A stretch of 64,000 nt of DNA from Phycisphaerae bacterium. GTDB taxonomy: Bacteria; Planctomycetota; Phycisphaerae; UBA1845; Fen-1342. Of the stretch, positions 21,467-58,478 are shown piece by piece. Positions within the stretch are counted from its first letter, which is position 1. Each line of letters opens with the position of its first letter. Made by a program: the position numbers and the translations under genes. The stretch is from the NCBI GenBank assembly GCA_963675745.2, contig CAXXWX010000003.1:160001-224000 (forward strand), written 5' to 3'. Below the pieces are notes generated by a model. That model worked only from the letters and a program-made list of their open reading frames with translations, was not told the DNA's origin and searched no databases.

Positions 21467-21500
21467 GTCGAGCTCCGCGTTGGTTAGAAAGACGCATCGA

Positions 21501-23587: not shown

Positions 23588-23662
23588 CTCCTCAAGCGAT
23601 GACAGTCATTCACCTCGGCGATGATACGCCCGCACCCGCAGCCTAGTTGCGCGCGAAGGACG

Positions 23663-30619: not shown

Positions 30620-30656
30620 GGTGCGACCTCATGCCCATCCACGCTGACGGTGTCGT

Positions 30657-30670
30657 TGACAGCGCTTTCA
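30657..30670. promoter_or_regulatory. LacI-type operator 1 (TGACAGCGCTTTCA)
   Basis: 14-bp palindrome between divergent lacI and GH144 genes; matches sites at 32190 and 42439. Confidence 0.75.
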
Positions 30671-30692
30671 TTCAAGGATACAGTCCCGGCCC

Positions 30693-32162: not shown

Positions 32163-32203
32163 CGTTCCGCAACGCGTGGATTACAATCATGAAAACGCTT
32201 TCA
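32159..32203 (+). promoter_or_regulatory. sigma70 promoter with LacI-type operator 2 (TGAAAACGCTTTCA) over the start site
   Basis: TTGACG (32159)-17 bp-TACAAT (32182); palindrome at 32190-32203. Confidence 0.8.
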
Positions 32204-32266
32204 ACCGACATCGTCCCGACCTAAGCCGTCCTTGCGCGGCCCCTTGCACAATCAGGATTTCGCGGT

Positions 32267-34690
32267 ATGAGTAGCATCGTGAGGGCGTCACGTGAATCGG
32301 ATGACCGTCTGGCTCGCCGCGCGGTTCGGAACCCGTATGGCGGATTCTCCATTGAGGGCAACGAGTTCCACATCACCGATTTCCGCACGCCACGTCCCTG
32401 GGTCAACATCATTGCCAACCCGCGCTTCGGACTGGCGGTAAGTCAGACCGGCAGCGGTTTCAGTTGGGTGGACAATGCCCAACTCGCGGCAATCACGCGC
32501 TGGGAGCAGGATCTCGTCCGTGACAACTCCGGCAAGTTTCTATACGTCCGCGACACAAAAACGGGCGAGGTCTGGTCGCTGTCGCCAGCCCCCACATGGC
32601 CGCGCTACGACGAGTACACGTGCCGGCACGGTATGGGTTACACAACCTTTGAGACGCGGTACGCTGACATTCGGGCCACATGGACCCTGTTCTGTCACGC
32701 CAGCGAGCCGGTGGAGTTCTGGCGGCTGACGCTCGAAAATCACAGCGGCAGACCGCGGCGACTCGAGCTATGCGCATACCAGGAGTGGTGCTGCGGTGTC
32801 GCACCCTCGCCGCGACGGGAATTCCACAAGCTGTTCCTGGAGACCGAGTTCGACGCCGCGCGCGGGGCAATCTTCGCATGCAACCACATGTGGGAGGTCC
32901 CGACCGAGCACCATGGCCATTGGAACACGGGCTTTCCGTACGTCAGCGCGCTAGCATGCACCGACGCGGTGCTCTCCGCGACCGGCGACAAAGGGGCGTT
33001 TCTGGGGCGCAATGGCGACGCGCGCTCGCCGGAGGCGCTCGCGCAGGATCTGTGGCGGCCCAAGTTCGGACGCCACGAAGATGCGGTGGCGGCGCTGCGC
33101 CTGGAGGTCGAATTGCGGCGCGACGAACGGCATGAGCTGGGATTCGTGTTGGCAGTTGGCGCCTCGCGCGCGGACGTCGAGCAAACACTGTCGCGGACGC
33201 GCGACGTGGCCGTGCTCGATCGGTCGCTGGAGGATGTGCGGGTTCAGTGGCAGGCGCGTTTGGCCCACCATCGCGTCGAGCTCCCGGAAGCGTCGCTCAC
33301 CTACCTGACGAACGATTGGCTGCGCTATCAGGCGATCGCGGGTCGCATCTGGGGGCGCTGTGGCTACTACCAGCAGAGCGGCGCGATTGGCTACCGCGAT
33401 CAGTTGCAGGACGCGCAGGTCTGGCTGACCATCGATCCGTCCCACTGCCGCACGCAGATCAACACCCATGCCGCCCACCAGTTCGCCGACGGATCCGTGT
33501 ATCACTGGTGGCACCCACTGTCAGAGCAGGGCTTGGTCACGCGCATGACGGACGATCTGCTCTGGCTGGCGTTCGTGACCGCCAACTACATCCGCGAAAC
33601 TGGCAAACTCGATATTCTGTATGACGAGACGCCCTTCCTCGACGACAAGACGCCGAGTTCGCTGCTCGAACACGTGCGCCGAGCATTCGCGCGGGCGTTC
33701 CAGCGGACGAGTTCGCGTGGGTTGCCGCACATTGGGGCCGGTGATTGGAACGACGGGCTCAGCGCCGTGGGCCTTCACGAGCGTGGTGAGTCCATCTGGC
33801 TGGGGCATTTTCTTGCGGGCCTGCTGGCCGACTGGGCGGGAATCTACCGGCGCGTCGGTAACGAGCGGGGCGCCGCCGACCTCGACGCGCGCCGGGCGGC
33901 GCTCGTCACCGCACTCAACACGCATGGCTGGGACGGGCAATGGTATTTGCGGGCGACGCTGGATGATGGTTCGACGCTGGGCAGTTCCGAAGGCGAAGCC
34001 GGACGTATCTTTCTGAATGCGCAGACGTGGGCAATCTTGAACGACGTCGCGCCGCCCGATCGCGCCCGGGCCTGCTGGGACGCGGTTTGCCGGCATCTGA
34101 TCAGTGAGGCGGGGGCCCTGCTGCTGGCCCCGGCGTTTGAAGCGCCCGACCGGCGCGTCGGCTACATCACGCGCTATGGCCCGGGGCTGCGCGAGAACGG
34201 CGGCGTCTATACGCATGCGGCGACATGGGCGATAGCGGCGGCGTGCAAGATGCGTGATACACAGCGCGTGGGCGAATTGCTGACCGCGATCAATCCCGCA
34301 CTCAAGGACCCCGAGCGGTACTGGGCTGAGCCGTACGTCCTGCCCGGCAACGTTGACGGGCCGCAGTCGCCGCACCACGGTCGCGCCGGGTGGACCTGGT
34401 ACACCGGTTCGGCGGCGTGGCTACATCGCGTGATCAGTGAGTGGGTGCTGGGTGTGCGGCCGGAATGGGACGGGCTGCGGATCGCGCCGTGTCTTCCGCC
34501 CGGGTGGAAGCATGCCAGCATGCAGCGTCCTTATCGCGGTGCGACGCTCGACATCACGATCGATCGACAGGATGGCGCATCGGCGGACCGCAACGTGTCG
34601 GTGACGCTGGATGGCAAGACGCTGGATGACAACCTCGTACCGGCGGCGAGGTTGATACCGGGGGCGCACACGATCGCGGTGACCTACTAG
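32267..34690 (+). CDS. GH94 glycoside phosphorylase
   Basis: TPRPWVN, RHGMGYT, YQQSGAIGYRDQLQD, DDLLWL, GDWNDG, GESIW, RENGGVYTHAA, WTWYTGSA. Confidence 0.92.
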   Translation: MSSIVRASRESDDRLARRAVRNPYGGFSIEGNEFHITDFRTPRPWVNIIANPRFGLAVSQTGSGFSWVDNAQLAAITRWEQDLVRDNSGKFLYVRDTKTGEVWSLSPAPTWPRYDEYTCRHGMGYTTFETRYADIRATWTLFCHASEPVEFWRLTLENHSGRPRRLELCAYQEWCCGVAPSPRREFHKLFLETEFDAARGAIFACNHMWEVPTEHHGHWNTGFPYVSALACTDAVLSATGDKGAFLGRNGDARSPEALAQDLWRPKFGRHEDAVAALRLEVELRRDERHELGFVLAVGASRADVEQTLSRTRDVAVLDRSLEDVRVQWQARLAHHRVELPEASLTYLTNDWLRYQAIAGRIWGRCGYYQQSGAIGYRDQLQDAQVWLTIDPSHCRTQINTHAAHQFADGSVYHWWHPLSEQGLVTRMTDDLLWLAFVTANYIRETGKLDILYDETPFLDDKTPSSLLEHVRRAFARAFQRTSSRGLPHIGAGDWNDGLSAVGLHERGESIWLGHFLAGLLADWAGIYRRVGNERGAADLDARRAALVTALNTHGWDGQWYLRATLDDGSTLGSSEGEAGRIFLNAQTWAILNDVAPPDRARACWDAVCRHLISEAGALLLAPAFEAPDRRVGYITRYGPGLRENGGVYTHAATWAIAAACKMRDTQRVGELLTAINPALKDPERYWAEPYVLPGNVDGPQSPHHGRAGWTWYTGSAAWLHRVISEWVLGVRPEWDGLRIAPCLPPGWKHASMQRPYRGATLDITIDRQDGASADRNVSVTLDGKTLDDNLVPAARLIPGAHTIAVTY

Positions 34691-34867
34691 CAGCGAGCAC
34701 ACAGTCAGAGCCCGAGCGGATGCGCGGGCGTATTCGCGGTTGGTCTGGGACATTTTGCCACCACCTCCAAAGGACTTGCCACGATTCTTCGCTGATAGCT
34801 GACAGCTGACAGCACTGTGCCCGCTTGCTTCTGCTCGGGCTCAGACCTTCCTTCCGCGAGGTCGCCG

Positions 34868-36709
34868 ATGATTTCCCTTCGTAGTCGACTGGCGTCTCTG
34901 ACCATCGTCTCACTCATGGTTGCCGTGGGATCGCGTGGAGGCGCCACACAGTGGCCGGTCGTGCAGGCGGAAGATGAGGAATATCTGCGTGGCGTGGCGG
35001 TGGACACTTGGGCGTGTATCGCGCACTTTGTCGAACCGACCACGGGATTGCCATTCGACAGCAGCAAGCGCGCTGAGCACAGCTCGGTCTCGAATCTCGG
35101 CTATTACGCGGCAAGTTGCGCCGCGGCGGCGGAGATGGAGCTCATGTCGCGTGAGGAGGCCACGCGGCGCGTCCGGCGCGTACTCGATGGATATCGCCGC
35201 TTCCAGCACTGGAACGGGTTCTCGCAGTCATGGAACAACGTCCACACGCTTAAGCCGGCACCACATGACACGATGATCTCGCTGTTGGACTCGGCGAACA
35301 TGGTGGCCGGCTTCGTGGTCGCGGGGCAGCTTCTGCCGGATGTGCGTGCGGATGTTGGTCAGGTTCTCAGTGCGATGGACTGGAAGCCCTTTCACGATGC
35401 GGCGGACGGTCGGCTGTTCGGCGGGTATGACATGGCGCGGGGGCGGATCGATCGCGGCTGGCACATCGGAGACTACGCCGGCGACGGGCGCTTGGCGGCG
35501 TTCTGGGCGATCGCGGTGGGCGCCGCGCCGCCCGGGTCATGGGAGAAGCTCGGGCGCGAGACCGAAACGCATTTTGGACTGGAGATCTACAAGCCGGCGT
35601 GGTTGGGTGGTGGGCTGTTCATGCAGGTGCAGGATGGTCTGTTCCTGGATGAGCGTTGCACGCCGGCGGGTCGCTCCGCAGCCGATTTCGCGTATGTACA
35701 AATGCTGTTTGCGCGGCAGCAGAAGTTGCCCGCGTGGGGTTGGTCAGCGTGCTGCGCGCCGGATGGCGAGTATCTTGGGTGGTGTGGGTTGAAGGTGTCC
35801 GTGGTCACGCCGCACGCGGCGGGGATGGCGGCGAACTTCTATCCGCACAAGGCCGCCGAGTGTTTGCGCGAGTTGGAGAAGTGGGGCGCGCGAACGCCGT
35901 TTGAGGAGCACGGCAGGCAGCTCAAGCTCGGCTTTCGCGATTCGATCGACCTCGACAGCGGTGTCGTGTGTGATCGCTACCTGCCACCGCTGGATCAGGC
36001 AATGATGTTCCTCGCGCTGGCCAACGCGCTCGAGGATCGCGTTGTGCAGCGGGCGTTCATGTCGCATCCGGTGGTTCGCACGGGCTGCACGCGTATCGCC
36101 GAGTATTCGAAACAGGTGGATGACGCGTGGCTAGCGGAGCTTCAGCGGCGCGATATTAAGCCGCTGCGTGTTCCCGACGCAGGCGGGCGCGGCGGCCCGG
36201 CGCGCGTGGTCATCGATGACTTTGAGCGGGCCGAGGCCACGACTAACCTGCTTGGTGCGGCGAACAGCGTCTGGACGCGCGACGCTGACGATGACACGGT
36301 GACAATCGGGATGCGGCACGAGACTCTCGAGCAGGGTGGCAAACGCTCGGGCTGTCTGCGTGTTGATTACGACGTGGAGTCGCCGAACCCGGCGTACGGC
36401 GGCGTGACGCTGAGTCTCGGGCATGCGAACGGCTCCGGATGCAATCTGCTGACGCTGCGGGCACGCGGGTTGCCGGATCGGACAAAGGTCGAACTGCATG
36501 GGCGTGGCGGATCGGGGGCGGTCCGCGTGCGTGTGAAGGATGCGGGGCAATGGACGGACATCGAGCTGCGCTACCGTGACTTCGGCATGATCACAGACTG
36601 GTCAGATCTCGATCGACTCGTCATCGTGTTCGAGGACAACGTGTCGAAGCCAAAGGTCGGCACCGTCTGGCTCGACGATATTGAGTTGATGCGTGGTGAA
36701 TCGAAGTGA
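34868..36709 (+). CDS. exported GH144-like/DUF3131 protein with C-terminal CBM11-like domain
   Basis: Signal peptide; TGLPFDS...SVSNLG, ISLLDSAN, WLGGGLFM, VVTPHAA, GFRDSID, LDQAMM; C-terminal VIDDFE...GTVWLDDIEL beta-sandwich. Confidence 0.78.
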   Translation: MISLRSRLASLTIVSLMVAVGSRGGATQWPVVQAEDEEYLRGVAVDTWACIAHFVEPTTGLPFDSSKRAEHSSVSNLGYYAASCAAAAEMELMSREEATRRVRRVLDGYRRFQHWNGFSQSWNNVHTLKPAPHDTMISLLDSANMVAGFVVAGQLLPDVRADVGQVLSAMDWKPFHDAADGRLFGGYDMARGRIDRGWHIGDYAGDGRLAAFWAIAVGAAPPGSWEKLGRETETHFGLEIYKPAWLGGGLFMQVQDGLFLDERCTPAGRSAADFAYVQMLFARQQKLPAWGWSACCAPDGEYLGWCGLKVSVVTPHAAGMAANFYPHKAAECLRELEKWGARTPFEEHGRQLKLGFRDSIDLDSGVVCDRYLPPLDQAMMFLALANALEDRVVQRAFMSHPVVRTGCTRIAEYSKQVDDAWLAELQRRDIKPLRVPDAGGRGGPARVVIDDFERAEATTNLLGAANSVWTRDADDDTVTIGMRHETLEQGGKRSGCLRVDYDVESPNPAYGGVTLSLGHANGSGCNLLTLRARGLPDRTKVELHGRGGSGAVRVRVKDAGQWTDIELRYRDFGMITDWSDLDRLVIVFEDNVSKPKVGTVWLDDIELMRGESK

Positions 36710-36829: not shown

Positions 36830-37678
36830 CTACCCTTTCAAGCCCGTTGTCGAGATGCCACGGATGAAAGTACGCTGGGCGAAAAGGAACAGGATCACGA
36901 CGGGCAGGATGATGAGCGTTGCGGCCGCCATGAGTTGATTCCAGGGTGTGTCGCCGGCTCTGCTCTGGAGGAATTGCAGACCCAGCGCCAGCGTGAACTG
37001 CTCCTGGTGCGAGAGGTAGATCAGCGGGCCGACGAGGTCGTTCCAGACGGCGAGGCAGTGGAACAGGGCGACGACCGCCAGCGCGGGGCGCGAGAGCGGC
37101 AGGATGATCAACCAGAAGCAGCCCCAGCGTGAACAGCCGTCGAGCATCGCCGATTCCTCGAGGTCCTTCGGGATGCCCATGAAGAATTGCCGTAGGAGAA
37201 AGATGTTGAACGCGGCGCCGAACCACGCCGGCACCCAGAGCGGCAGAAACGTCCCGACCCAGCCGAGCTTCTGAAAGATTATGTACTGCGGCACCATGAT
37301 GACGGGGAAGGGGATCATCATCGTCGCGAGGCATATGCCGAACATCAGGTTGCGGCCGCGGAACTGAATGCGCGCGAAACCATAGGCGGCGATGGCGCTG
37401 GCGAGCACCATGCCGACGAGGCTGAGGGCCGCGATGATGAGCGTGTTGCGGGCGTAAAGCGCGAAGTCGAAGCTGTCCGAGCGCACCACCTGCTGGTATG
37501 CCAGCAGTTGCGGATTCTCGGGGATGATATTGGGGTGGCGCAGTTCGTCCGGCGGCTTGATACTGACGCTGAACATCCAGACCAGTGGAAGCACGAACAG
37601 GCCGGCGACGATGCACAGCAGTGCGTAAACCACCAGCCGGCTGCGCAACTTGCGATAACGTGTCTGCCTCGTAGGCAA
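36830..37678 (-). CDS. carbohydrate ABC transporter permease (MalG-like)
   Basis: EAA motif IPKDLEESAMLDG, WNDL, FIRGI. Confidence 0.93.
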   Translation of the reverse strand: MPTRQTRYRKLRSRLVVYALLCIVAGLFVLPLVWMFSVSIKPPDELRHPNIIPENPQLLAYQQVVRSDSFDFALYARNTLIIAALSLVGMVLASAIAAYGFARIQFRGRNLMFGICLATMMIPFPVIMVPQYIIFQKLGWVGTFLPLWVPAWFGAAFNIFLLRQFFMGIPKDLEESAMLDGCSRWGCFWLIILPLSRPALAVVALFHCLAVWNDLVGPLIYLSHQEQFTLALGLQFLQSRAGDTPWNQLMAAATLIILPVVILFLFAQRTFIRGISTTGLKG

Positions 37679-37681
37679 AAT

Positions 37682-38656
37682 CTATGCTCCGCGGTAGTGA
37701 ACCGCTCGCCGGCTGACGAGGAACACCAGCCCGGTCAACCCGACGATGATCAGCAGTTGAATCCACGCCATCGCGCTCGCATAGCCCATCCTCAGATAGC
37801 GGAACGCGTTGTCGAACAGGTACATCGTGTAGAAGTACGTCGAGTCGTTCGGGCCGGAGCCCGTGCGCCACATCACGTACGGCAGCGCGAAGATCTGCCA
37901 TGTACCGATGATGCCGACCACCACGTTGAAGAGGATCACGGGGCTGAGGCCGGGCAGGGTCACGTGCCGGAAACCTTGCCAGCGCGAGGCGCCGTCGAGT
38001 TCGGCGGCCTCGTAGAGCGTCTCCGGGATTTCCTGCAAGCCGGCGAGATAGATCACGACGGGCGACCCGAGCAACCACATGCTGATGATGACCAGCGCGA
38101 GCATGGCCCAGCGCGGCTGACTGAGCCAGCCGGGGCCCTCGGCGAGATCCTGGCCCAGGCTGGCGATGGGCTCCGTAAGTTCGCTCTTGCCCGTGGCGTC
38201 GTGCAGGGCGCTTGTGACGGGCTCCACGAGCTGTCCGAGGGGCCGGATCGCCTGGTTCACCAGGCCGGCCTCGGGGCTGAGCATCCACATCCACATCACT
38301 CCGACGGCCACCAGCGGCACGATCGTCGGCAGGAAGATACAAGCCCGGAAAACGGCCTGGCCGCGTGCTTCCTGGTTGAGCAGCACCGCGAGCAGGACGG
38401 CGACCATCGTCCCGAGCGGGATCGCGATGGCAGCGAAGAGCAGCGTATTGCGAATCACCGCATGGAACTTGGCATCCTGCATCAGATTGCTGTAGTTCTC
38501 GCCGCCGATGAAGACCGGCGATTCGAGCAGTGGATAGTCGCAGAAGCTGATGTAGAGCGAGAGTCCCATCGGTAGCGCCAGGAACAGCAGGAAGCCCAGC
38601 CACCAGGGGGCCGTCCACAACAGACCGCTGAGCCAGGCTGGCCAGGATTGCCTCAC
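37682..38656 (-). CDS. carbohydrate ABC transporter permease (MalF-like)
   Basis: YLAGLQEIPETLYEAAELDGA, GYASAMAW. Confidence 0.93.
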   Translation of the reverse strand: MRQSWPAWLSGLLWTAPWWLGFLLFLALPMGLSLYISFCDYPLLESPVFIGGENYSNLMQDAKFHAVIRNTLLFAAIAIPLGTMVAVLLAVLLNQEARGQAVFRACIFLPTIVPLVAVGVMWMWMLSPEAGLVNQAIRPLGQLVEPVTSALHDATGKSELTEPIASLGQDLAEGPGWLSQPRWAMLALVIISMWLLGSPVVIYLAGLQEIPETLYEAAELDGASRWQGFRHVTLPGLSPVILFNVVVGIIGTWQIFALPYVMWRTGSGPNDSTYFYTMYLFDNAFRYLRMGYASAMAWIQLLIIVGLTGLVFLVSRRAVHYRGA

Positions 38657-40014
38657 GGCGTTGGGCTCCCGACTTGCTCGCCGCGACGCAGGGCGGCCAT
38701 GCGTTGATGTTCGGCAACGATGGCGTCGACACGGCGCTGGGCCGCGCTGACCTCGGCTCGGGGGTCGAGCCGGCCGCCCAGGATGTTCTCATGCATCTTC
38801 TTGAGTTCGTCGGTGGCCATGGGCCAGGTCGGCATCTGCGGATAGCCGAAGGCCTGGGGCGATGAGGCCAACTCGTCGAACACGCGGATGAACGGATTGG
38901 TGTGCGCGGCGTGGAAGTCGGCGCCGGGCGTGCGAAACGGGGAGATTTTGCCATGCTCGCGGCAAAGACGCTCCAGGACGTCCTGCCGCAACACGTATTC
39001 CAGGAAGATCACCGCCTCGTGTGGGTGGCGCGCACCGGTCGGGATCACGAAGAGATCCGTGCTGGCAAACGCGCGGTGCAGGTCGGCGCGGACCGAGGGG
39101 AACGGCGCGACGGCGTAGTCCAGGTTGGGCGTGTACTTGTTGATCCAGTTCGAGAGCCAGGGGCCCTGGAAGACCATCGCCAGGCGCTCGTCGAGAAACG
39201 GGTTCTGCGCGCCCTCAATTGCGCCCATCGTGCCCTCGAATCTCAGAACGGCGGGCAGGCCCAGCGCTTGGCGTCGCTGCGCCAGCCAATCCGCCGCCCC
39301 GCGCCCGGCGTCCGTGTCAATCATGAAGTGCCGGCCGTCCCACATGTGGGCGTCAAAGAAGCAGGGCCAGATCCAGTGCCACCATCCCAACATGCCAGGC
39401 GAGGTGGTGAAGCCGAGCTGCACGATCCGTTCGCGTGTCTCGGGGTTCTCGTAGCGCGTCAGGCAACGGGCGTATTCGTTCACCTCGGCCGTCGTCCGAG
39501 GCGGCCGGTTTGGGTCGAGACCGGCCTCGCGGAACAGTCGGCGGTTGTAGTACAGACCGATGGTGAACGGCGTGCTCGGCAGCGCGTAGAGTGTGCCGTC
39601 GTACCGCCCGATCTGGAGCCAGATCGGTTTGAAAGCGTCGAGGTCGATCGATGTTCCGGCGATGACCTCTTCGAGTGGCATCAGGGCGCCGCGGTCGGCG
39701 AACTGCGGGATGATGTAGTCGAACAGGCCGGCGACGTCGGGCGGGTCGCCGCCCGCGGTCGCTATCAACATGCGTTGGTCGACGTTGCTGACCGAGTTGT
39801 AGTCGACCCAGATGTCGTGTTCGGCGCCGACAGTCGCGTTGAATTCATCAACGATGCGCTGCATGGCGAGCGCCTCGACGCCCGACCATTTTTCCCAATA
39901 GTGAACGACTGTCCGGTGCGGAGGTACATCAACCTGCCCGCGCGGTCCAAACAACAAAAGCCCGGCGGCGGGGATACCGAGGATGATGAGCAGAATTGCG
40001 CCTCGCACACTCAT
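38653..40014 (-). CDS. carbohydrate ABC transporter substrate-binding protein
   Basis: AGGDPPDV, YDGTLYALP, LYYNRRLF, AMVFQGPW; N-terminal hydrophobic anchor. Confidence 0.9.
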   Translation of the reverse strand: MSVRGAILLIILGIPAAGLLLFGPRGQVDVPPHRTVVHYWEKWSGVEALAMQRIVDEFNATVGAEHDIWVDYNSVSNVDQRMLIATAGGDPPDVAGLFDYIIPQFADRGALMPLEEVIAGTSIDLDAFKPIWLQIGRYDGTLYALPSTPFTIGLYYNRRLFREAGLDPNRPPRTTAEVNEYARCLTRYENPETRERIVQLGFTTSPGMLGWWHWIWPCFFDAHMWDGRHFMIDTDAGRGAADWLAQRRQALGLPAVLRFEGTMGAIEGAQNPFLDERLAMVFQGPWLSNWINKYTPNLDYAVAPFPSVRADLHRAFASTDLFVIPTGARHPHEAVIFLEYVLRQDVLERLCREHGKISPFRTPGADFHAAHTNPFIRVFDELASSPQAFGYPQMPTWPMATDELKKMHENILGGRLDPRAEVSAAQRRVDAIVAEHQRMAALRRGEQVGSPTP

Positions 40015-40157: not shown

Positions 40158-42149
40158 TCAGCTTCCACAGCCCGGGTCGGCCGGAACTTCAGGGCCGCTG
40201 GCACTGAGGCAGTCGAAAAACGCGTCCAAGTCGTCGCCGCCGATCGCGCGGTCGCCGCCACGGTCGAAGCACATGCAAGCCTCTGGATTGGCGGCGTCGT
40301 CGGCTGGACAGGACTGCAACAGCGTGAAATCGCCGAAATCCACGTCGCCGTCAAGGTCGGCATCGGCAAAGGGCAGCCCGCAATCACACGCGTCGCCGAT
40401 GCCATCGTCGTCCGTGTCCTGTTGCGCGCGGTTCCAGACGCCCGCACAGTTATCGTAAACGTCAGCGATGCCGTCCGCATCCGCATCAGACTGGAATGGC
40501 TGGCGGGCCTTGAAGAACAGCGGTTCGATGCTCTCCATCAGGCCGAACATCAGGAACGTGTGATCGACCAGGCCGGCATCGTTTGGCAGCCAGTTGGGGT
40601 CCTGGGATGAGACACGCGTCGCGCCGTAACGCAGACGGGAGTCGCTGGTTGGCGGCTGGTCCTCCAGGAACTCGAGCACAGAGTGGATGTCACCCCAGGC
40701 ACCGACAGCCTCGGGACCGAACACGTTTTCGTGGTCGTAAATGCGGTCGGCGCTATAGCCGCTCGGATTGACCCCCGCCGTCAGGCCATAGCGGTAGGGC
40801 TGGCCGAGCTGGTAGGCGCAATAAAGACTGTCCGCGTACTGATGGTTGCGGAGGAACTGCTCGAAGTCCGCGTTGCGCGCGAAGTCGGAGTTGAAAAAGT
40901 GGCTCTGGTGGACCCAGAAGGCCGGTGCGTATACGGAGGTGTTGTCCGTCAGCGTGGGGATGCCGCGGTATGATTTTGTGGGCGCGTTTGCGGGATCAAG
41001 CCACAGGTGTGCGATCGCGGGGGCGCGTGTCGCGCCGGGTTCGCGCAACGCCAGGCTCACAACCAGCACATATTCGTTCCATGGCGGCAAATCACCTGGG
41101 GCACCACCCCCGCCGGCGGCCATTCCCAGGTAGACGCGTCCGTTCAGGCTCGGGTTGATGGCCGCTTCGAAGTTCGTCGTCGCGAACATCTCGTCGGCGT
41201 AGGAGGCAATTGTCGCGTTGTCAGGAAAGTGGTTCTTGGCGAACAACGCCCCACTCACCAGCAGCGCCGAGCCGATCGTCGTATACGTGCCATCCCATCC
41301 GCCAGCATAGGCGCCGGTGTTGACATCCATGTAATGTACCCAATGGCCATCGGCGGAACGCTCGGGCGTGACTCCCGGTGTGTGGCCTGAGTACGCGCTT
41401 AGGATGCTCTCGACCAGGGACTCGCTGAAACCGATGATCTCGAGTTGATCGACCGCACACAGGCCGAGCAACGCGAAACCAGCCGCGTCCGGCGTCGCTG
41501 GGTGGTAGGGTTCGACGGACGGTGAGAGTGGCAGTGAGTCGCGCACCATGCCGGTCGCCTGGATGGCGTCCATGAGGTAGAACGTCGCACGCTGGAGTTG
41601 GTTGAATCGCGCGGACTCGACGGTGCCGCTGACGACCGTGCGACTGAGCGACCACCGACTCCACTGGATGCCCGTCGGTAACCCTTCGCCGACCTGTACG
41701 CCCACGCCCTTGATCCGAATCCAATTCGTCTGTCCCGGAGTGAAGCGGTCGAGGGGGATGGTGGCGGCGTAGACGCGCGCGCTGTCGACGAACTCGCTAT
41801 GCACCTGCTCGAGTTCGCCGAGCGTGGGGCCGGCCCATAGGGTAAGGTCGAAGGTCTGCTCCATGTGCAGCGAGATGACGATGCGGAAGCGATAATGCAG
41901 AGTATCGGCTGGCACGTTGGCGGGCAGATCGAACGCGATGTCGATCTGATCGCCTTCCCACCCCATTTCGCCGGGCCAGGTTGGTGTCGTGCCGACGGTA
42001 CCGACGAAACCATCGGGGTACTCGATGGCCCAAGGTGGGCTGGCGAAGTCGGTAACGACGAAGATATCGTCGGCGCCGCTCAGCGGCGGGCCGGCTCCGA
42101 GCGAGAGGAGAGTGCATATCCCAGCTAGGATTCGGCGTGTCAAGGGCAT
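40158..42149 (-). CDS. secreted divergent GH144-like protein with N-terminal beta domain, TSP3-like repeats and dockerin-like tail
   Basis: Signal peptide; TIGSALLVSG, WNEY, YGLTAG, GLVDHTFLMFGL parallel the GH144 motifs; DADADGIADVYDNC...DTDDDGIGDACD; ADADLDGDVDFGDF. Confidence 0.68.
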   Translation of the reverse strand: MPLTRRILAGICTLLSLGAGPPLSGADDIFVVTDFASPPWAIEYPDGFVGTVGTTPTWPGEMGWEGDQIDIAFDLPANVPADTLHYRFRIVISLHMEQTFDLTLWAGPTLGELEQVHSEFVDSARVYAATIPLDRFTPGQTNWIRIKGVGVQVGEGLPTGIQWSRWSLSRTVVSGTVESARFNQLQRATFYLMDAIQATGMVRDSLPLSPSVEPYHPATPDAAGFALLGLCAVDQLEIIGFSESLVESILSAYSGHTPGVTPERSADGHWVHYMDVNTGAYAGGWDGTYTTIGSALLVSGALFAKNHFPDNATIASYADEMFATTNFEAAINPSLNGRVYLGMAAGGGGAPGDLPPWNEYVLVVSLALREPGATRAPAIAHLWLDPANAPTKSYRGIPTLTDNTSVYAPAFWVHQSHFFNSDFARNADFEQFLRNHQYADSLYCAYQLGQPYRYGLTAGVNPSGYSADRIYDHENVFGPEAVGAWGDIHSVLEFLEDQPPTSDSRLRYGATRVSSQDPNWLPNDAGLVDHTFLMFGLMESIEPLFFKARQPFQSDADADGIADVYDNCAGVWNRAQQDTDDDGIGDACDCGLPFADADLDGDVDFGDFTLLQSCPADDAANPEACMCFDRGGDRAIGGDDLDAFFDCLSASGPEVPADPGCGS

Positions 42150-42438: not shown

Positions 42439-42476
42439 TGAAAACGCTTGCAAAGAGATTCGTTCCAGATTACACT
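42439..42476 (+). promoter_or_regulatory. sigma70 promoter with LacI-type operator 3 (TGAAAACGCTTGCA) overlapping the -35
   Basis: Operator 42439-42452; TTGCAA (42448)-17 bp-TACACT (42471). Confidence 0.75.
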
Positions 42477-42567
42477 ATACGTACTGGGGCCTGTCCCTGG
42501 GCACGCTCTGTGCAGAGCGGAGGCATGTCGGATTGATAAACATTTCCTTGGAGGATGGAGAAGACTC

Positions 42568-43338
42568 ATGAAAAGGACACTGGGAACCAAGGCGCTAATC
42601 ATCGCGGCGGCGGTCGCCATCTTGGCGATTCCGGCGCTGGCGGATGTGACGGACATCAACGCCGTCAAGATCCAGGAGCGCCGCTTCAACGACTTCCCGC
42701 TCTCATCACTCACCACCACGAACAACTACCCCACACTTGTCAGCTTCGTTGAGACCGACTTCGGCGCCGGTGGCTGGGCCAACCAGCATGTCGCGCGCTT
42801 CTCCGCCGACGCCGGCGCTACCGATCGCCTGTTCAACAACAACGAAGCCTTCGACATCAGCTTCGAGATCATGTTGGATGCCGGCTCCGTCACGCCCACT
42901 CAGAAAGAGGCGGGCTTCCGGATGGACAGCTTCGTCGGCGGCGAGGGCTTCTTCCTCGCCAAGAGCGGCGGCGAGGTGGCGGCCTTTGGTGGACCGTTCC
43001 CGTTCTATAGCTTCGGCGCCAGTGCCTACACACCCGGGACCGTGGCCACCATGGAGATGATCTACACCCCCGACGATGACGCCGACCCATGGGATGGCGA
43101 CGCCGCCACAATGGAATACATCTACAACGGCCTGTCGAGCGGCCCGCTCGATTTTGCCAACCTCGAAAACGGCATGATCGACGGTTCGGACCTGGGAATG
43201 TACCTCCAGAACGTCGTCGACACGAGCAACCCGAGCGATTTCGGGATGGTCGAATACACCAACTTCAACGTCGCCGTGCCGGAGCCCGGCAGCGCGTTGC
43301 TGGTGTTGTTGGGTCTGGCGTGGCTGCGGCGGCGATAG
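42568..43338 (+). CDS. PEP-CTERM sorting domain protein
   Basis: Signal peptide; C-terminus VPEPGSALLVLLGLAWLRRR; RBS GGAG. Confidence 0.92.
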   Translation: MKRTLGTKALIIAAAVAILAIPALADVTDINAVKIQERRFNDFPLSSLTTTNNYPTLVSFVETDFGAGGWANQHVARFSADAGATDRLFNNNEAFDISFEIMLDAGSVTPTQKEAGFRMDSFVGGEGFFLAKSGGEVAAFGGPFPFYSFGASAYTPGTVATMEMIYTPDDDADPWDGDAATMEYIYNGLSSGPLDFANLENGMIDGSDLGMYLQNVVDTSNPSDFGMVEYTNFNVAVPEPGSALLVLLGLAWLRRR

Positions 43339-43483
43339 TCAGACACCGTGAATCAGCCGGCATGGAGCCGGCGTGTTGAGATGTGTGCAGCGAGGTGGGC
43401 TGGCCTCGGCCGGTATAGCCGGGGCCAGTCGACACTCGCGGCCACTTACTGAGACGGGGCCGGCGATCGGCGGAGCGCAGATC

Positions 43484-44326
43484 ATGAGTCGGGCAGATAA
43501 GGACATTCGATTCCGCACGGGCGCGTTTACGCTGATCGAGCTTCTGGTGGTCGTCGCGATCATCGCGCTGTTGATCTCGATCCTGCTTCCCTCGCTCAGT
43601 GCGGCACGCGAGCACGCCAAAGCGGCCGTGTGCAAGTCGGGTCTGCACCAGTTGGCCCTGGCGACTACGTACTACAGCGAGGATAACCGCGAGCACCTGC
43701 CCTACATACTCGGGTCGCCCGATACCCTGGGCAATCCGACCAACGCGCCATTCTACCAGTTTCACCAGATCTTCCTGTTCTGGAAGTACCAGCAGAACTT
43801 GAAGATCTACCAGTGTCCCAGCGCCAAGAATGAGAACTCCGTCAAGAAGTACTTCGGTTCGGTCGGGACCACCGAGTACTACAGCTATTACTACGTGCAG
43901 AAGTCAGACCCGTACTATATCGATGCCTATCTCGACCGGCGTTGGCCCGAAATCGACCCGACCGAAGTCAGCGGCGAGGAAATCCCGCAGCTCTTCACCG
44001 AGTATTGGTTCAATGACTGGAGCACGGGCGCCAAAAACGGGACGCGCGACGTGCCGGCTATCAACGGCGGCGCGATCTCCAAGATCCCGCTGCCGAACTT
44101 GGCCGTGATAATCAGCGATGCCGTTTGGGAGTCGCCGGACCCTCGCCATCGCGGGGGCAGTCAATTGGCTTTCCTCGACGCGCACGCGGGCTGGTACAAG
44201 CGTGACCGCTACCTCGACCCAGAGGGTTCCACCGGCGATCATTCGCCCAACGACTATGACGCGTGGGGCAATCGCCCGTTCTACGCGTGGGGATTGACGA
44301 AAGAGGGATTCGACGCACTGCCGTAA
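43484..44326 (+). CDS. prepilin-type N-terminal cleavage/methylation protein, DUF1559-like
   Basis: [47 protein letters not shown]. Confidence 0.9.
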
Positions 44327-44433
44327 CCGTAATGGCTTGTCGCACGGCGGGCGCCACGCGACGCCGCCGTGGTCAGCGCCAGCGGCGTTCCGCATCGAAG
44401 ACCCGTGGCGGAGGTTTGAAAGGAAAAGCAGAC

Positions 44434-46224
44434 ATGAGACGGTGCCTAACGATCGCTGCGCTTATCAGCGTGGCCCTGATGCTCTCGACAGCCAGTGCCG
44501 AGCAGAACATTGTGGCGAACGGCAGTGCCGAGGCCGGTGGTGGCGCGGGTGGCCCCGACGACCGCATCGCCGAGAGCTGGACGTTCTTCGGCGGCGACAC
44601 CATCGAACGCAGCAACGAAGAGAACCTGGAGCCACTCGCCGGAAGTTGGTCGCTGAAGATCTTCGGCGGAGAGGGTACCGTCGGGGCTTACCAGGATATC
44701 TCCGTGGCGGAGGGCGCGAACGTCACCATCAGCGCGCAGCTCTACACGCGCGACGGGGATGCGATCGACGGCGATGCGCAGGCCAAGATCAAGATTGAGT
44801 TCCTGGATGCCGCGTCGCAATCGCTCGGTGCCACGGAGCTGGTCGTGCTCGATGCCGGATCCGCGACCGACACCTGGACGCCTGCTTCACTGGGCCCGAT
44901 CGAGGCACCGGCCACCACCGCTGTCGCACGCATGGTCTGCGTGTGGACCTACAGTGCAACCTCGTTTGGCTCGGCGTACTGGGACGACTGCACATTGACG
45001 GTCGGTGCCGGGGGCAACTTGCTGGACAACGCCGATTTCGAGATCGCTGGTATCAGCGGCTCGTCACCGTTCGGTATTGACGAATGGACCGGCTTCGGGA
45101 CTCAGGAAAAGTCCTCGGACGCCGCCTATGACGGATTGAACAGCGCATTCGCTCAGGTTGGCGGCGCGGCCGGAGAGTACTCAGGCCTGTACCAGGATAT
45201 GGCCGAGTTGGCCGCTGGCGACCGACTCTTCTTGCACTGCCGAGTCTGGATCCCGGCCGCGACACCATTGACCGGCACGTCGGCGGCGGCGATCAAACTC
45301 GAGTTCTATCCGACCAGCGGCAGCTCGACGCCGCCCCCGGAGGAGGCGCTCGACTTCGACGCAAACGACCCGGCTGACTCCTGGGAGCTCGTCAGCTACT
45401 CCACGATTGTTCCGGAGGATATTTCGCTGGCGCGCGTGGTGTTGCTTTCATTCGATGAGGATCCCAACAACGGTCCGGTCTACTTCGAGTCCGCCTGGGC
45501 CGAACGCAGTAGCCAGGTCGGCGTGAATCAGCTCGATAACCCAAGCTTCGAGCAGGGTACGAGCGGCGCTAACGGCCTCATCAGCTGGACCGAGTTCCGT
45601 GGCTTGGGTTGCTCGGCACGCAAGAACGCATTTGAGGTTCCCGCGATGGATGGCGTCTCCGTGCTGAAGATCGTGGGCGACTGCGTGGCAGGCGTTTTCC
45701 AGGACATTGAAGTTGCCCCCGGAGAGACACTCACGATTTCAAGCTATCTACGCTCAAATTCCGCTGAACCGTACGCTGCTCCGGGCGTGATGGCCGGCGT
45801 CAAGGTCGAGTGGGTCAGTGGCGTCGTGCCACCCTGGATCGACATTGGCGGCGCGCCGAACAACACCGCCGAAGAGGGGACGCCGACGGATCAGTGGATG
45901 CCGCTCTGGATCGACTACACCATGCCCGCCGGCACCGCTGCCTTGGTCCGTTACACCCTTATCGTGGCCCAAGGTGATGCAGCCGAAGCCGCGGCCTACT
46001 TCGACGCCTGCGAGGCGGTCGTCATGAACCTCTATGACGGCGCGGACATTGACGCAGACGATGATGAGGACCTGGGCGACTTTGTCTGGCTCCAGCGGAC
46101 TTTCCGCGGCACCGGCGTGACATCGCTCGAATGGAACAAGTACACGTACGACTTCGATGAAGATGGAGACGTCGACATAACGGACTGGAACTTCTTCGAG
46201 CCGCGTCTTGTCGGGCCGAATTAA
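44434..46224 (+). CDS. secreted non-catalytic protein with three tandem galactose-binding/CBM-like domains and dockerin-like tail
   Basis: Repeats start NIVANGSAE / NLLDNADFE / NQLDNPSFE and end AYWDD / VYFES / AYFDA; tail ADIDADDDEDLGDF...DFDEDGDVDITDW. Confidence 0.8.
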   Translation: MRRCLTIAALISVALMLSTASAEQNIVANGSAEAGGGAGGPDDRIAESWTFFGGDTIERSNEENLEPLAGSWSLKIFGGEGTVGAYQDISVAEGANVTISAQLYTRDGDAIDGDAQAKIKIEFLDAASQSLGATELVVLDAGSATDTWTPASLGPIEAPATTAVARMVCVWTYSATSFGSAYWDDCTLTVGAGGNLLDNADFEIAGISGSSPFGIDEWTGFGTQEKSSDAAYDGLNSAFAQVGGAAGEYSGLYQDMAELAAGDRLFLHCRVWIPAATPLTGTSAAAIKLEFYPTSGSSTPPPEEALDFDANDPADSWELVSYSTIVPEDISLARVVLLSFDEDPNNGPVYFESAWAERSSQVGVNQLDNPSFEQGTSGANGLISWTEFRGLGCSARKNAFEVPAMDGVSVLKIVGDCVAGVFQDIEVAPGETLTISSYLRSNSAEPYAAPGVMAGVKVEWVSGVVPPWIDIGGAPNNTAEEGTPTDQWMPLWIDYTMPAGTAALVRYTLIVAQGDAAEAAAYFDACEAVVMNLYDGADIDADDDEDLGDFVWLQRTFRGTGVTSLEWNKYTYDFDEDGDVDITDWNFFEPRLVGPN

Positions 46225-53108: not shown

Positions 53109-55214
53109 CTAGCCACCCGCCAGCAGCGCGACAAACGGATCGACGTCGCCATTGTTGATCGTGCCGTCGTCGTTGATGTCAGCCGCCGCGGCGTCGCAGT
53201 CCGGGTACGCCAGAGCATATGCATCGGGATCGGTCAACGCCAAGACGAACGGGTCGATGTCGCCGTTGTTCACCGCGCCGTCGCAATTGAGGTCGCCCAA
53301 CTCCTGCGGGTCGCTCGTGATTGCCTCTCCACCGCCGAGCAGACACACGTCATCGATTTCGATGTCCGAGATCGGGCCATCAACGCCGAGCAACTCGAAG
53401 AGCATGCTGACCTGCGAGAGATCGACCGCGTCAGAGATGTCGGTCATGGGAATCTCGACCACGTGCCACTGTCCGTTACGAACGAAGCCGTACGGGTCGT
53501 TCCCGTTTTCGAACTTGATCCACTTCTGGCCAATATCGTCGACATTGCCGCTGCGCATACCAAGGAAGAACGGGGCCGTCGAACTGGTCTTCATCGCCAG
53601 GTGCAGCGTGCTTTCCGGGTAGCGAAAGGCCGTGAGGTTGTACTTGATCGTGGGTGTGAACGCCGCGCCAAACCAGGTCAGGCCCGGCGTCGAGTAGTAC
53701 GACAGACTGGCGGAACCCTCGAAGGGGGCTTGAACACCCGGCTGTAATGTGTTCTCCCAGATGTAAAACTCCCCGTCCACGCCGAGCGCGTATTCGCCGG
53801 CGGTCTTGTGGCTCGGATCTTCGGTGAAGATGCCGAAACTCCCATTCTCCGGCGTCGCGCGCGCCACGCTTGGCGACCAATACACATTGTCGATCCCAAA
53901 CTCGAAGGTGGCCGGCGGAGCATCGCCCGCGATCATGAACAGTTGATGGACGGTATTGAAATCGACGTTGAGGAACGCGTTCAGCGGGATGACCACTTCG
54001 TGCCAGTTACCGTCGCGCACCAGGCCGAACGACTGTTCGCCATCGATGAACTGTACCCAACTCTCACCCGCGGCCGAACTCTTGATGCCGATCTTGAATG
54101 GCGCCGTCGAGCTTGTCTTCATGTGCAAGTGCAGGTGACCGTCGGAGTAATTCTGCATGTTACGATCGATGTGTGAAAACACGCCCATGCCGAACCAAGC
54201 GCCGGCCGCGGCGGTCATGTTCCACGCCTCACTACCCTCATACGCATCAACCGGCCCCGCGGTCAGGTTGTTCCATAAATACAGCGACGCATCAACATCG
54301 TACGTGACACTATTGTTGACCGTAGTAGTTTCTGTGAATACACCGAAGTTCTCTATCTCGGCGACATCTTCCCCGAAATACAGCTCCGTATCACCGTTGT
54401 CGTACAGACGTATGTAGTCAACGTACATTCGGCCCGGGAACGGGGCCGTGATCAACGCCGGATCAGTAATCTCGACGAAGTTCCAGCCACCAACCGATAC
54501 ATTGGCGATGATGTACATGGGCGCGTGGAATTCCTCGAGCGAGTGGGTCTCAATATCGCTGATGTCAATCTCCCAGAATTGGGTACCATCGACTGACGTG
54601 CGGATGTGCGTCGGTGTCCACTCCACGGCGAAGATGTGGTAGTCGTCATAGAGATCCACGGGCCAATCGATCGAGCCGCCGAAGTCAGCCTGGCTGCCCT
54701 CAAAATCCCAAAACACGTGCGCCCCCACACGGCGGTTGACCACACCCGCAAGGAACGCGGCCCGACTGCCCACTTCCATAATGTCGAGCTCGCCGCAGCC
54801 CGGCCACGGAATCTGACCGACGTTGTTGCCCAAGAGCCAGAAAGCGGGCCACATGCCATTGTCCACGTCGGGCAGCTTTATTCGCGCCTCGAGCGTGCCG
54901 TATTTGAACGCCATGCGCCCATGCGTCACCAGGCGTGAGGAGGTGAACTCCTTGCCACCCAGGAAGTTTTCGCGACGCGCTTCGATCACCAGATTGCCGC
55001 TTTCGATATACGCGTTTTCGGGGCGGGCGGTGTGATATTGCAGTTCACCGTTGCCGAAGCCGCTACCACCAACGTTGTACGTCCAGGTTGAATGGTCGAT
55101 GTTGGGATCGGTGAACTCGTCAGACCACACCAGCGTCTGGGCGCCGGCCAACGGCGAACTCACCAACAGTGCGGCGATCCCCAAGCCACACCACGCTACC
55201 TGTTGAACCTTCAT
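53109..55214 (-). CDS. secreted GH16 (laminarinase-like) with two accessory beta domains and dockerin-like tail
   Basis: LVWSDEF, GNGELQ, SSRL, WPAFWLLG, WPGCGELDIME (ExDxxE); duplicated FGVFTE/FGIFTE...GLVRDGNWH/GFVRNGQWH domains; GDLNCDG tail. Confidence 0.92.
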   Translation of the reverse strand: MKVQQVAWCGLGIAALLVSSPLAGAQTLVWSDEFTDPNIDHSTWTYNVGGSGFGNGELQYHTARPENAYIESGNLVIEARRENFLGGKEFTSSRLVTHGRMAFKYGTLEARIKLPDVDNGMWPAFWLLGNNVGQIPWPGCGELDIMEVGSRAAFLAGVVNRRVGAHVFWDFEGSQADFGGSIDWPVDLYDDYHIFAVEWTPTHIRTSVDGTQFWEIDISDIETHSLEEFHAPMYIIANVSVGGWNFVEITDPALITAPFPGRMYVDYIRLYDNGDTELYFGEDVAEIENFGVFTETTTVNNSVTYDVDASLYLWNNLTAGPVDAYEGSEAWNMTAAAGAWFGMGVFSHIDRNMQNYSDGHLHLHMKTSSTAPFKIGIKSSAAGESWVQFIDGEQSFGLVRDGNWHEVVIPLNAFLNVDFNTVHQLFMIAGDAPPATFEFGIDNVYWSPSVARATPENGSFGIFTEDPSHKTAGEYALGVDGEFYIWENTLQPGVQAPFEGSASLSYYSTPGLTWFGAAFTPTIKYNLTAFRYPESTLHLAMKTSSTAPFFLGMRSGNVDDIGQKWIKFENGNDPYGFVRNGQWHVVEIPMTDISDAVDLSQVSMLFELLGVDGPISDIEIDDVCLLGGGEAITSDPQELGDLNCDGAVNNGDIDPFVLALTDPDAYALAYPDCDAAAADINDDGTINNGDVDPFVALLAGG

Positions 55215-57362: not shown

Positions 57363-58478
57363 ATGGCGTCAGTTCGTGATATCGCCGAGCAGGCGGGCGT
57401 CTCAATCGCCACAGTATCTCGCGCGCTGAACAATGATGCCGGCGTGAGCAGTAGTACGCGAGAACGCGTGCTCTCGATCGCCAATGGCGTTGGTTATGCG
57501 GCAACCGTTGGCCGGCGCGCGGCCAGCCATATTGGATTCGCCTACACCGGTGAGCAGAACTTCACCCATGCCTTTGAGGCCGCCGTACTGGAGGGTGTCG
57601 CCAAGGCCCTCGGCAGCAGCGGCCACAGCATGGTGCTGATGAACCTCAAACGTTCCAGGATGCCGGGTGAAAACTTCACACAGATGTTCATGCGCAACGG
57701 GGTGCGCGGCGTGATCTTGCGCGTGACGGCCGAATCTCGCGATCTGTGTCATGAGATCGCCGCCGAGCGCTTTCCGCATGTAGTTCTTGCGGAGCGATTC
57801 GAATCGCCCGACGTCTGCTGCATTGACTGCGATTCAAAGCCGGACAGCTTGCGAGCGGTCGAACACCTGATCGCACTTGGACACCGACGGATCGCGTTTG
57901 CGGTTCATAACGTACCAGACCGCGACCATCAGGACCGTTTTGAGGGCTATCGCGAGGCGCTGGCGCTGCACGACCTGCCGTTCGAGGCCAACTGGGTGTA
58001 TCGGCAACCGGCGACGCTGTCCGGCGGCGCTACGGCGTTCAAGATGATCATGAGCGAGCCGAACCGCCCCACCGCGATCTACTTCGCCGACTGGCTGCCC
58101 GCGGTCGGCGCGATCAAAGCCGCCCATGAGTTGGGCGTACGTGTGCCCGACGGCATTTCGATTGTGGGGTTTGACGATGCGCACATGCGGCACACGGTGC
58201 ATCCGCCGTTGACAGCCGTATGTCAGAACGCCATCCAACTGGGCAGCGAGGCAGCGTTGCGGTTATCGCAGATGCTGGCCGGACGTCGTCGCGCGCCGTT
58301 CCAGATTACACTGCCGAGTTTCTTCGAGATCAACGAATCCAGCGGCCCGCCCCCGGCCAGGCCGGAGCGCGTGAACCCCAACGGTCACAGCGCCGCGTAC
58401 CGGCCGAGCGCGGGCGACGTCGCCAGGGACACCACAGATTCAGCGGCTTCCGATGGTGCCGCTCGCCGAGACCCGTGA
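57363..58478 (+). CDS. LacI family transcriptional regulator
   Basis: SVRDIAEQAGVSIATVSRALN, LGHRRIA, SIVGFDD, PPLTAV. Confidence 0.94.
   Translation: MASVRDIAEQAGVSIATVSRALNNDAGVSSSTRERVLSIANGVGYAATVGRRAASHIGFAYTGEQNFTHAFEAAVLEGVAKALGSSGHSMVLMNLKRSRMPGENFTQMFMRNGVRGVILRVTAESRDLCHEIAAERFPHVVLAERFESPDVCCIDCDSKPDSLRAVEHLIALGHRRIAFAVHNVPDRDHQDRFEGYREALALHDLPFEANWVYRQPATLSGGATAFKMIMSEPNRPTAIYFADWLPAVGAIKAAHELGVRVPDGISIVGFDDAHMRHTVHPPLTAVCQNAIQLGSEAALRLSQMLAGRRRAPFQITLPSFFEINESSGPPPARPERVNPNGHSAAYRPSAGDVARDTTDSAASDGAARRDP

Follow-up and report, generated by a model that had tools for sequence, protein, structure and literature searches.

Loci of the SusC/SusD type in Bacteroidota cluster a regulator, hydrolases, and surface non-catalytic binders for each substrate, and in DNA uptake the minor pilin ComP sets the choice of substrate while retraction through a secretin imports the polymer. 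In Akkermansia, a Planctomycetes-Verrucomicrobia-Chlamydiae (PVC) bacterium, a type IV-like pilus named MUL2 has been implicated in glycan attachment and uptake; it is encoded by a single four-gene housekeeping locus that includes PilM (MUL2B) and an archaeal-type pilin (MUL2A) (PMC13174399). Planctomycete fibres bind dextran, and dextran accumulates in the periplasm, according to the accessible part of one report (PMC5394234), while a 2025 review, in its accessible part, still calls the players in planctomycete polysaccharide uptake unknown (PMC12673574). The prepilin-like DUF1559 family is described, in the available portion of a further paper, as expanded and flanked by genes for secreted proteins (PMC8567305). 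Here, we analyze a 64,000-nucleotide stretch of DNA from a Phycisphaerae bacterium (hereafter the window; assembly GCA_963675745.2, contig CAXXWX010000003.1, positions 160,001 to 224,000), which carries, within a glycan locus, a cassette encoding a PEP-CTERM surface protein, a pilin-like protein (pilin 1), and a secreted protein with three folds of the carbohydrate-binding-module (CBM) type (the triple-CBM partner).

The genome (5.2 Mb; 91% complete, 6% contaminated), whose contig C3 contains the window, yielded 3773 genes under a purpose-built hexamer model; its proteins have named relatives in Phycisphaerae. Coordinates outside the window are given as contig:position. The cassette sits in locus 1, a locus with glycoside hydrolase (GH) families GH144 and GH94, and follows an operator in the order that had been read from the sequence at the outset: PEP-CTERM gene, prepilin-like gene, triple-CBM gene. 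The features of locus 1 are as follows.

42439..42452: LacI-type operator TGAAAACGCTTGCA with a zero-mismatch core, serving the cassette and the divergent gene 40158-42149
42568..43338, + strand: PEP-CTERM surface protein, 256 amino acids (TIGR02595, 18.1 bits, cut-off 16)
43484..44326, + strand: pilin-like protein 1, 280 amino acids (N_methyl over cut-off; motif H-X9-DAH)
44434..46224, + strand: secreted protein with three CBM4/16/22-type beta-sandwiches and a C-terminal dockerin-like tag (structure model)
40158..42149, - strand: secreted protein of the beta-1,2-glucanase clan, divergent from the cassette (match to 8xuk, PgSGL3, E=5e-19)
36830..40014, - strand: ATP-binding cassette (ABC) sugar-binding protein and two permeases (PF01547, PF00528)
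27219..36709, + strand: three Glycoamylase/GH144-type genes and a GH94 phosphorylase (PF10091, PF17167)
29603..30619, - strand: LacI repressor of locus 1 (PF00356), with operator 30657 in its divergent promoter

The structure 8XUK is that of PgSGL3, a beta-1,2-glucanase, as given in the accessible part of its report (PMC12102758). This match, taken together with the GH144-type genes, the GH94 phosphorylase, the LacI gene, and the ABC genes (the sugar-binding protein and permeases are absent from the preliminary description), makes beta-1,2-glucan very probably the substrate of locus 1.

Four operator copies tie the cassette to the hydrolases. Between positions 26000 and 64000, three zero-mismatch LacI-type cores occur (27181, 32190, and 42439), all intergenic and all in locus 1, and the fourth operator, at 30657, carries one mismatch. 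The zero-mismatch operator upstream of the cassette is kept in 19/20 orthologous loci. When a matrix derived from 20 sites in other genomes was scored across the genome analyzed here, the three zero-mismatch sites ranked as the top three (22.5-23.2), with the 42439 site second, and the 30657 site ranked fifth. Since the operator is common to the hydrolase genes and conserved, the cassette can be assigned from sequence to the hydrolase regulon. A relaxed pattern allowing up to two mismatches was uninformative, as it was present in 9/30 TetR control loci; the control was run on this relaxed pattern only. A sigma-70 scan found no promoter, and terminators were at chance level.

Locus 1 resembles a SusC/SusD locus in its co-regulated carbohydrate-active enzymes (CAZymes), its regulator, and its non-catalytic CBM-type proteins, which are predicted binders; in starch loci, the corresponding partners carry starch-binding modules (CBM53 in two loci and X25 in two loci of this genome). 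Unlike a SusC/SusD locus, it has no tandem pair of a SusC-like receptor and SusD, a pilin-like gene occupying that slot, and its surface proteins bear PEP-CTERM and dockerin-like tags, not lipoprotein anchors. None of the 27 window proteins covered by the family scan belongs to a TonB receptor or porin family, as the preliminary description had noticed, and SusD (PF07980) had no match in the genome (91% complete). The sole TonB receptor of the genome, at C26:333416-339488, has a hybrid histidine kinase and an ABC-type substrate-binding protein as neighbours, a setting that suggests signaling and not glycan import. The region upstream of this receptor scores 2.9, so that no TonB receptor was found under the operator of locus 1. 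A single OprB porin gene is present, in an unrelated locus without the operator.

We next consider the conservation of the cassette across 401 genomes of the class; the genomes sampled in these comparisons are relatives, and kin are not independent. The variable part of pilin 1 had a single-copy match in 24/401 genomes, from two families, and it matched 55 proteins at 38-100% identity. Comparison of 20 of the 23 non-self loci placed the triple-CBM gene directly 3' of pilin 1 in every one (20/20), even as the flanking gene order varied. A PEP-CTERM orthologue stood beside pilin 1 in 15/20 loci, an ABC sugar-binding protein with permeases in 14/20, and beta-1,2-glucan enzymes nearby in 17/20; GH16 occurred in 0/20. 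In the reverse search, which covered 90 further genomes of the order, 18 had the triple-CBM gene, and it lay beside pilin 1 in 18/18. Together, these patterns indicate that pilin 1 and the triple-CBM protein are a pair inherited together.

The signal peptide of pilin 1 belongs to class III and shows F+1 and E+5 (PF07963 and TIGR02532 above cut-off). The FTLIE motif, including Glu5, hardly varies, and among 55 homologues, residue -1 is Gly in 29 and Ala in 23. In the model of pilin 1 (pLDDT 90.1), the N-terminal helix spans 51 residues and the H-X9-D strands close the sheet. A wide structural search returned pilins or pseudopilins in all of its top 14 rows, with neighbours of the bacterial type; the best fold match was PilA4 (Z 5.0, root mean square deviation 3.4, 122/125 residues over model residues 15-269), and ComP was among the neighbours (Z 4.1). 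Foldseek with the same model found no pilin match at E<=0.001. As modeled, pilin 1 is a type IV pilin core interrupted by large insertions. Pilin 1 and the window's second pilin-like protein (pilin 2, described below) can be aligned over their first 65 residues only (51% identity), and their variable parts gave no mutual BLAST alignment at E<=10. The C-terminal motifs are H-X9-DAH and H-X10-DGH, respectively, and the two proteins are therefore, as had been proposed, alike at the N-terminal helix and the C terminus and unlike in between.

Like proteins of the DUF1559/SBP_bac_10 (PF07596) and TIGR04294 families, the window's pilins combine N_methyl with a C-terminal H-X9/10-D(G/A)H motif, and the database names of homologues agree. 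Unlike those proteins, they match the profiles marginally or not at all: PF07596 scores pilin 1 at 23.9 bits against a cut-off of 23.3 over 39/268 positions and has no match on pilin 2, while TIGR04294 matches neither, though it matches two other paralogues. The earlier DUF1559 label is thus marginal as a profile assignment. Many homologues carry PF07596 in precomputed database annotation.

The model of the triple-CBM partner (pLDDT 89.1) comprises three beta-sandwiches and a helical C-terminal tag, and it matches CBM22 (E=1.7e-9) and CBM16 (Z 12.6, root mean square deviation 3.1, 131 aligned). No catalytic domain was seen in the family scans or the model, and a CBM-type fold by itself does not show glycan binding. 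The body of the PEP-CTERM protein (42568-43338) has conserved aromatic residues and no PDB sequence match. Complex prediction gave pilin 1 and the triple-CBM partner a score of 0.58, against 0.00 for the best control, with at least 83% contact agreement between runs and a partner pLDDT of at least 83. In the benchmark of this tool, its mark was reached by 116/157 solved pairs and 2/215 mismatched pairs, and the range at or below 0.60 contained only 18 of the solved pairs and both mismatched ones, so a score there is rated weak. With the fixed adjacency as a prior, the score raises the odds of direct contact modestly, lending weak support to the view that pilin 1 touches its partner.

Two pilus systems invite comparison. 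Like MUL2, the cassette would connect pilus-type proteins to glycans in a PVC bacterium. Unlike MUL2, it has no PilM-type gene, its pilin has bacterial-type fold neighbours, and it does not belong to MUL2; many clade-specific pilins lie here inside individual nutrient regulons, with partners and without assembly genes. The likeness to ComP extends to the fold neighbourhood of pilin 1, whereas the features that we propose here, namely a glycan or B12 as substrate, a separate secreted binder paired with the pilin, and LacI or riboswitch control, set the cassette apart.

The module had been put forward as a polysaccharide capture system, and a scope of glycans alone did not survive comparison with cobalamin riboswitch loci. 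At C22:12191-16817 of this genome, a run of PEP-CTERM, dockerin-like, pilin-like, and PEP-CTERM genes lies behind a cobalamin riboswitch. Among the best 30 riboswitch loci of the class, 24 have a pilin downstream, within 1.5 kb in 14 loci and at about 4 kb or less in 10 of 13 extended loci; the remaining six comprise one TonB receptor, two with neither, and three at a contig edge. The 20 extended riboswitch regions divide into 15 with a pilin, 2 with a TonB receptor, 3 with neither, and 0 with both. The variable part of this genome's B12 pilin is matched by 14/15 pilins of the extended regions, and 12 of the 22 riboswitch-pilin genomes searched had no TonB receptor match. B12 is too large for porins. 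The SusC/D-like role suggested in the preliminary description is thus supported by these loci, in which a pilin cassette or a TonB receptor but never both was found, although the cassette is not for polysaccharides only. The sequence comparisons indicate a general nutrient cassette. A riboswitch scoring identically to the one at C22:12191, at the end of contig C2, after a duplicated PEP-CTERM pair, suggests an assembly duplication.

In class-wide comparison, pilin-like genes were over-represented next to LacI and CAZyme genes, as anticipated. A pilin-like gene lies within 1.5 kb of the best LacI match in 6/30 genomes and of the best TetR match in 0/30 (p=0.024). Within 6 kb, the counts are 9/20 for LacI and 0/20 for TetR (p=0.0012), and for PEP-CTERM genes 13/20 and 2/20; these 20 genomes are a subset of the 30, cover 8 families outside the order, and are not independent of the 1.5-kb test. 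Of the nine LacI-pilin loci, six have a GH or CBM family and none has a TonB receptor (36/59 genes scanned), and two repeat the PEP-CTERM gene, pilin, and 1000-amino-acid partner beside GH13 genes. Per-genome counts of LacI and pilin-like genes correlate (rho 0.85, n=53; family means 0.83, n=19), against a rho of 0.11 for TetR (n=30). The pilin-like counts, which range from 7 to >117 per genome and are at least 117 in three genomes, include some secretion pseudopilins. TonB receptor matches have a median of 0 per genome (zero in 27/53; maximum 7), and three genomes with 56-61 LacI genes have 1, 2, and 4. A phylum-wide LacI test was too thin, with a pilin beside LacI in 2/10 loci, both in one genome.

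In the genome analyzed here, which has 30 core pilin-like genes and 7 LacI genes, LacI lies directly beside a pilin-like gene in 3/7 cases (1.6% expected per gene, p=1.3e-4). Within two genes of the 30 pilin-like genes, a PEP-CTERM gene occurs at 9 (baseline 4.8%), a dockerin-like gene at 13 (baseline 16.9%), and both at 7 (baseline 1.6%). Their contexts are about seven glycan loci, one riboswitch, and about five extracytoplasmic function (ECF) sigma or two-component loci, the rest showing nothing telling.

The window contains a second glycan locus with a pilin-like gene, locus 2.

57363..58478, + strand: LacI repressor of locus 2 (PF00356)
58495..59631, + strand: pilin-like protein 2 (N_methyl; motif H-X10-DGH)
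59899..63249, + strand: large secreted repetitive protein with a dockerin-like tag, without a family match
53109..55214, - strand: secreted GH16 with a dockerin-like tag (PF00722)
63483..64000, + strand: second GH16, extending past the window (family scan)

Past the window, locus 2 continues with a PEP-CTERM gene, a LacI gene, a GH17 gene, an ABC system, a GH161 phosphorylase (E=4e-182), and a further pilin-like gene; the GH17, ABC, and GH161 genes point to beta-1,3-glucan as its substrate. Locus 2 had been seen as a repeat of the locus 1 layout, and LacI, pilin, large partner, and GH16 do follow in order, but no PEP-CTERM gene adjoins the pilin; one is found past the window, at C3:227147. The large partner has no PDB sequence match, and its CBM-like features score 0.85, below the tool's 0.9 mark, which makes them a lead only. 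When the DNA 5' of 13 orthologous LacI genes and of eight regions of the genome itself was searched for palindromes, no shared operator emerged for locus 2, and a TGTAACGTTACA-type candidate was rejected, as it is missing from the locus itself. Gene 55702 has an EFDIE motif, which we take to be GH16-like; it has no Pfam or PDB match.

The pilin 2 clade is broader than the pilin 1 clade and occurs in 21/401 genomes. We compared 20 of its loci, covering 21 of 29 non-self hits: LacI is present in 13, a large partner in 10, GH16 in 7, and GH144 in 0. In 10/14 other loci, a large partner of the 59899 type is found no more than 10 kb from a gene of the pilin 2 clade. Six other loci of the clade are GH13 loci, two of them with a CBM53-bearing large protein directly downstream. 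On the pilin 2 tree, the GH13 label needs two changes (sorted well) and the GH16 label five (sorted poorly). The substrate-specific pilin of the preliminary description therefore holds for the pilin 1 clade and fails for the pilin 2 clade, and a strict rule of one pilin clade for one substrate is rejected for the latter, which spans GH16, GH13, and GH5-like loci.

Taken together, these observations lead us to propose, tentatively and with a little less than even confidence, that the cassette is a capture-and-import module that uses a shared type IV filament and replaces SusC/SusD or other TonB receptors. One operator type appears to govern the hydrolases, the phosphorylase, the ABC system, and the cassette, and comparison indicates that the fixed pair of pilin 1 and the triple-CBM partner has equivalents, each a pilin with a secreted partner, in beta-1,3-glucan, alpha-glucan, and B12 loci. 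The pilin, with its type IV core, is predicted to contact the partner; the partner and the PEP-CTERM protein, judging by their folds, would bind glycan; and filament assembly with PilT-driven retraction may carry the cargo through a secretin across the outer membrane. Import of the oligomers for cytoplasmic phosphorolysis would then fall to the permeases and the periplasmic binding protein; such ABC import with cytoplasmic phosphorolysis by GH94 is established logic. Pilin 1 would be a minor pilin carrying its cognate, predicted glycan-binding partner on the shared filament. Because the pilin 2 clade spans several substrates, specificity more likely lies in the partner, and probably resides mostly there and in pilin insertions that recognize it. 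The co-regulation signature, fixed pairing, enrichment, and scarcity of TonB receptors are observed, the folds and the contact are predicted, and the binding, the filament assembly, and the transport through the outer membrane are inferred.

Several points weigh against this proposal. At Z 5.0, the pilin fold match is weak by absolute standards. The pilin 2 clade is only partly substrate-sorted, with five changes for GH16 and one GH13-locus pilin among the GH16 ones, and in the tree, pilin 2 of the window falls with GH5-like loci. Because the hydrolases are secreted, a porin (one OprB is encoded) could admit the oligomers. About 7/30 paralogues lie in glycan loci, which is not clearly above the 1/14 random neighbourhoods with a GH-like gene (44 genes scanned at a strict E-value; low power). 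The secretin and motor genes are, by position, linked to no cassette, and none lies under the 22 best operator sites. Finally, the genome is 91% complete and 6% contaminated, the sampled genomes are relatives, and the pilin 1 pairs come from two families only.

The pilus machinery of the genome comprises 5 secretins and 13 T2SSE-family ATPases, 5 of these ATPases being above the PilT cut-off. A 2385-amino-acid secretin at C24:57518-68178, preceded up to the contig end by frames of 125 and 1067 amino acids with similar-looking N termini, is a candidate giant outer-membrane channel.

Unlikely, yet the best surviving of the alternatives, is that the cassette serves adhesion or tethering only: the pilin would display the binder on a filament while secreted enzymes cut outside and the oligomers pass through porins. 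This explanation fits all of the glycan-locus co-occurrence data. The hydrolases have signal peptides and the same C-terminal tag, an OprB gene is present, and the Akkermansiaceae MUL2 pilus has been described as an attachment mediator (PMC13174399). However, the locus that encodes OprB is unrelated and lacks the operator, and adhesion leaves unexplained why the cassette follows 24/30 B12 riboswitches, in a slot held by a TonB receptor in two other regions. These B12 cases weigh most heavily against pure adhesion.

Somewhat less likely again is a secretion adaptor, in which a pseudopilin of type II secretion recognizes its neighbour and pushes it out via a secretin, capture and uptake being left to other proteins. 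That the pilin is constantly paired with, and predicted to touch, one secreted neighbour fits this model equally well, and the genome has five PilB/GspE-type ATPases and several secretins. Yet a pilin-like neighbour is present at only 18/201 dockerin-like and 10/53 PEP-CTERM genes, so tagged secreted proteins do not generally need a pilin; the partners are mainly non-catalytic binders, and the outer-membrane step of B12 is left unexplained.

The protein could alternatively be a periplasmic receptor or sensor anchored in the inner membrane by its helix, keeping ligand or partner in the periplasm to serve the ABC system or signaling without a filament, which we regard as improbable. The family is termed solute-binding in the accessible part of PMC2754498, several paralogues adjoin ECF sigma/anti-sigma or two-component genes, and Ala, not Gly, precedes the cleavage site in 23/55 homologues. 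But locus 1 already has a classical binding protein, Glu5 of the FTLIE motif is nearly invariant, and the model keeps the pilin sheet. PEP-CTERM partners are surface-sorted, as is established. Moreover, proteins combining N_methyl and SBP_bac_10 are partly in the sodium dodecyl sulfate (SDS)-soluble fraction, unlike plain pilins, in the available part of PMC8567305. The last explanation, an expanded family hitchhiking in conserved operons with no functional unit, draws on the roughly 30 paralogues per genome, more than half without telling context, but is very improbable and largely refuted by the controls: operator conservation, 20/20 and 18/18 pairing, 9/20 against 0/20, and 24/30 riboswitches.

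The dockerin label given earlier to the tag is marginal: PF00404 (Dockerin_1) has no match on 44434-46224, and the tag occurs genome-wide. Its calcium-loop motif is present in 201/3773 genes, C-terminally in 177. A cellulosome is rejected, as the genome has only one weak partial cohesin match. The bearers of the tag include enzymes, peptidases, and binders, and some orthologues swap it for another variant; it may be a signal in its own right, for sorting or anchoring.

Other paralogues show further arrangements. At C3:12174-16867 and C19:227403-230919, pilin-like genes lie beside X25 proteins of the dockerin-like or PEP-CTERM type, with GH13 or a sugar ABC system in the vicinity; these are probable alpha-glucan cassettes. 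Proteins of 100-140 amino acids with one N-terminal membrane helix accompany pilin-like genes at C21:18864, C26:809600, C3:159872, C3:12174, and C10:56327 and constitute a second class of pilin partner. Three regions (C24:4003-14734, C26:34387-45854, and C17:57417-61792) have pilin-like genes in loci with an ECF sigma and a kinase or FecR-type anti-sigma, a context that elsewhere is typical of TonB receptors. At C23:69167-71866, a His-rich short leader precedes a pilin-like gene, a His-rich PEP-CTERM gene, and a dockerin-like gene; a metal-uptake cassette is unsupported here, as the leader, although DUF2946-like in appearance, has no Pfam or NCBIfam match. Within the window, a third pilin-like gene (5259-6284, - strand) has nuclease-like and metallo-beta-lactamase-fold neighbours and no cassette partners. 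Elsewhere in the window (20401-25156, - strand), three RHS-repeat core fragments have variable C termini with a small gene after each, the first being fused to a dockerin-like stretch; this layout is the one usual for interbacterial toxin/immunity cassettes.

The literature searched was mostly without subscription papers and included PMC8567305, PMC5394234, PMC2754498, PMC5352709, PMC11131199, PMC11685898, PMC12673574, PMC12102758, and PMC13174399; within it, we found neither a cognate partner for DUF1559 or H-X9-DG pilins nor a tie between such pilins and regulons for sugars or B12. The parts of the module are known folds, and its arrangement and proposed function were not found in print within the same literature. 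As judged from sequence, a conserved, regulon-embedded module in an undescribed arrangement is real, and its function is likely uptake. Unlike the work on planctomycete fibre or crateriform dextran uptake, which assigned no genes and was carried out in Planctomycetia, not Phycisphaerae, the cassette points to specific genes and a predicted pair of proteins for outer-membrane passage without SusC/D, together with their operator and, as the inducer class, beta-1,2-glucan oligomers.

More broadly, and with slightly more reserve than for the cassette itself, we suggest that Phycisphaerae import large nutrients independently of TonB: interchangeable minor pilins, each with its own secreted binder and each induced through the regulator of its nutrient, would load glycans or B12 onto one retractile filament, which would draw them through a secretin. 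Other lineages with expanded H-X9-DG pilins would probably share this route. If the filament reading is true, it would supply the genes behind fibre-associated polysaccharide uptake. An uptake function would mean that nutrients have a further general way into the periplasm in addition to porins and TonB receptors; it would also give a role to the largest unexplained planctomycete gene family, with its 7 to >117 copies per genome, and provide a marker for calling substrate loci in such genomes.

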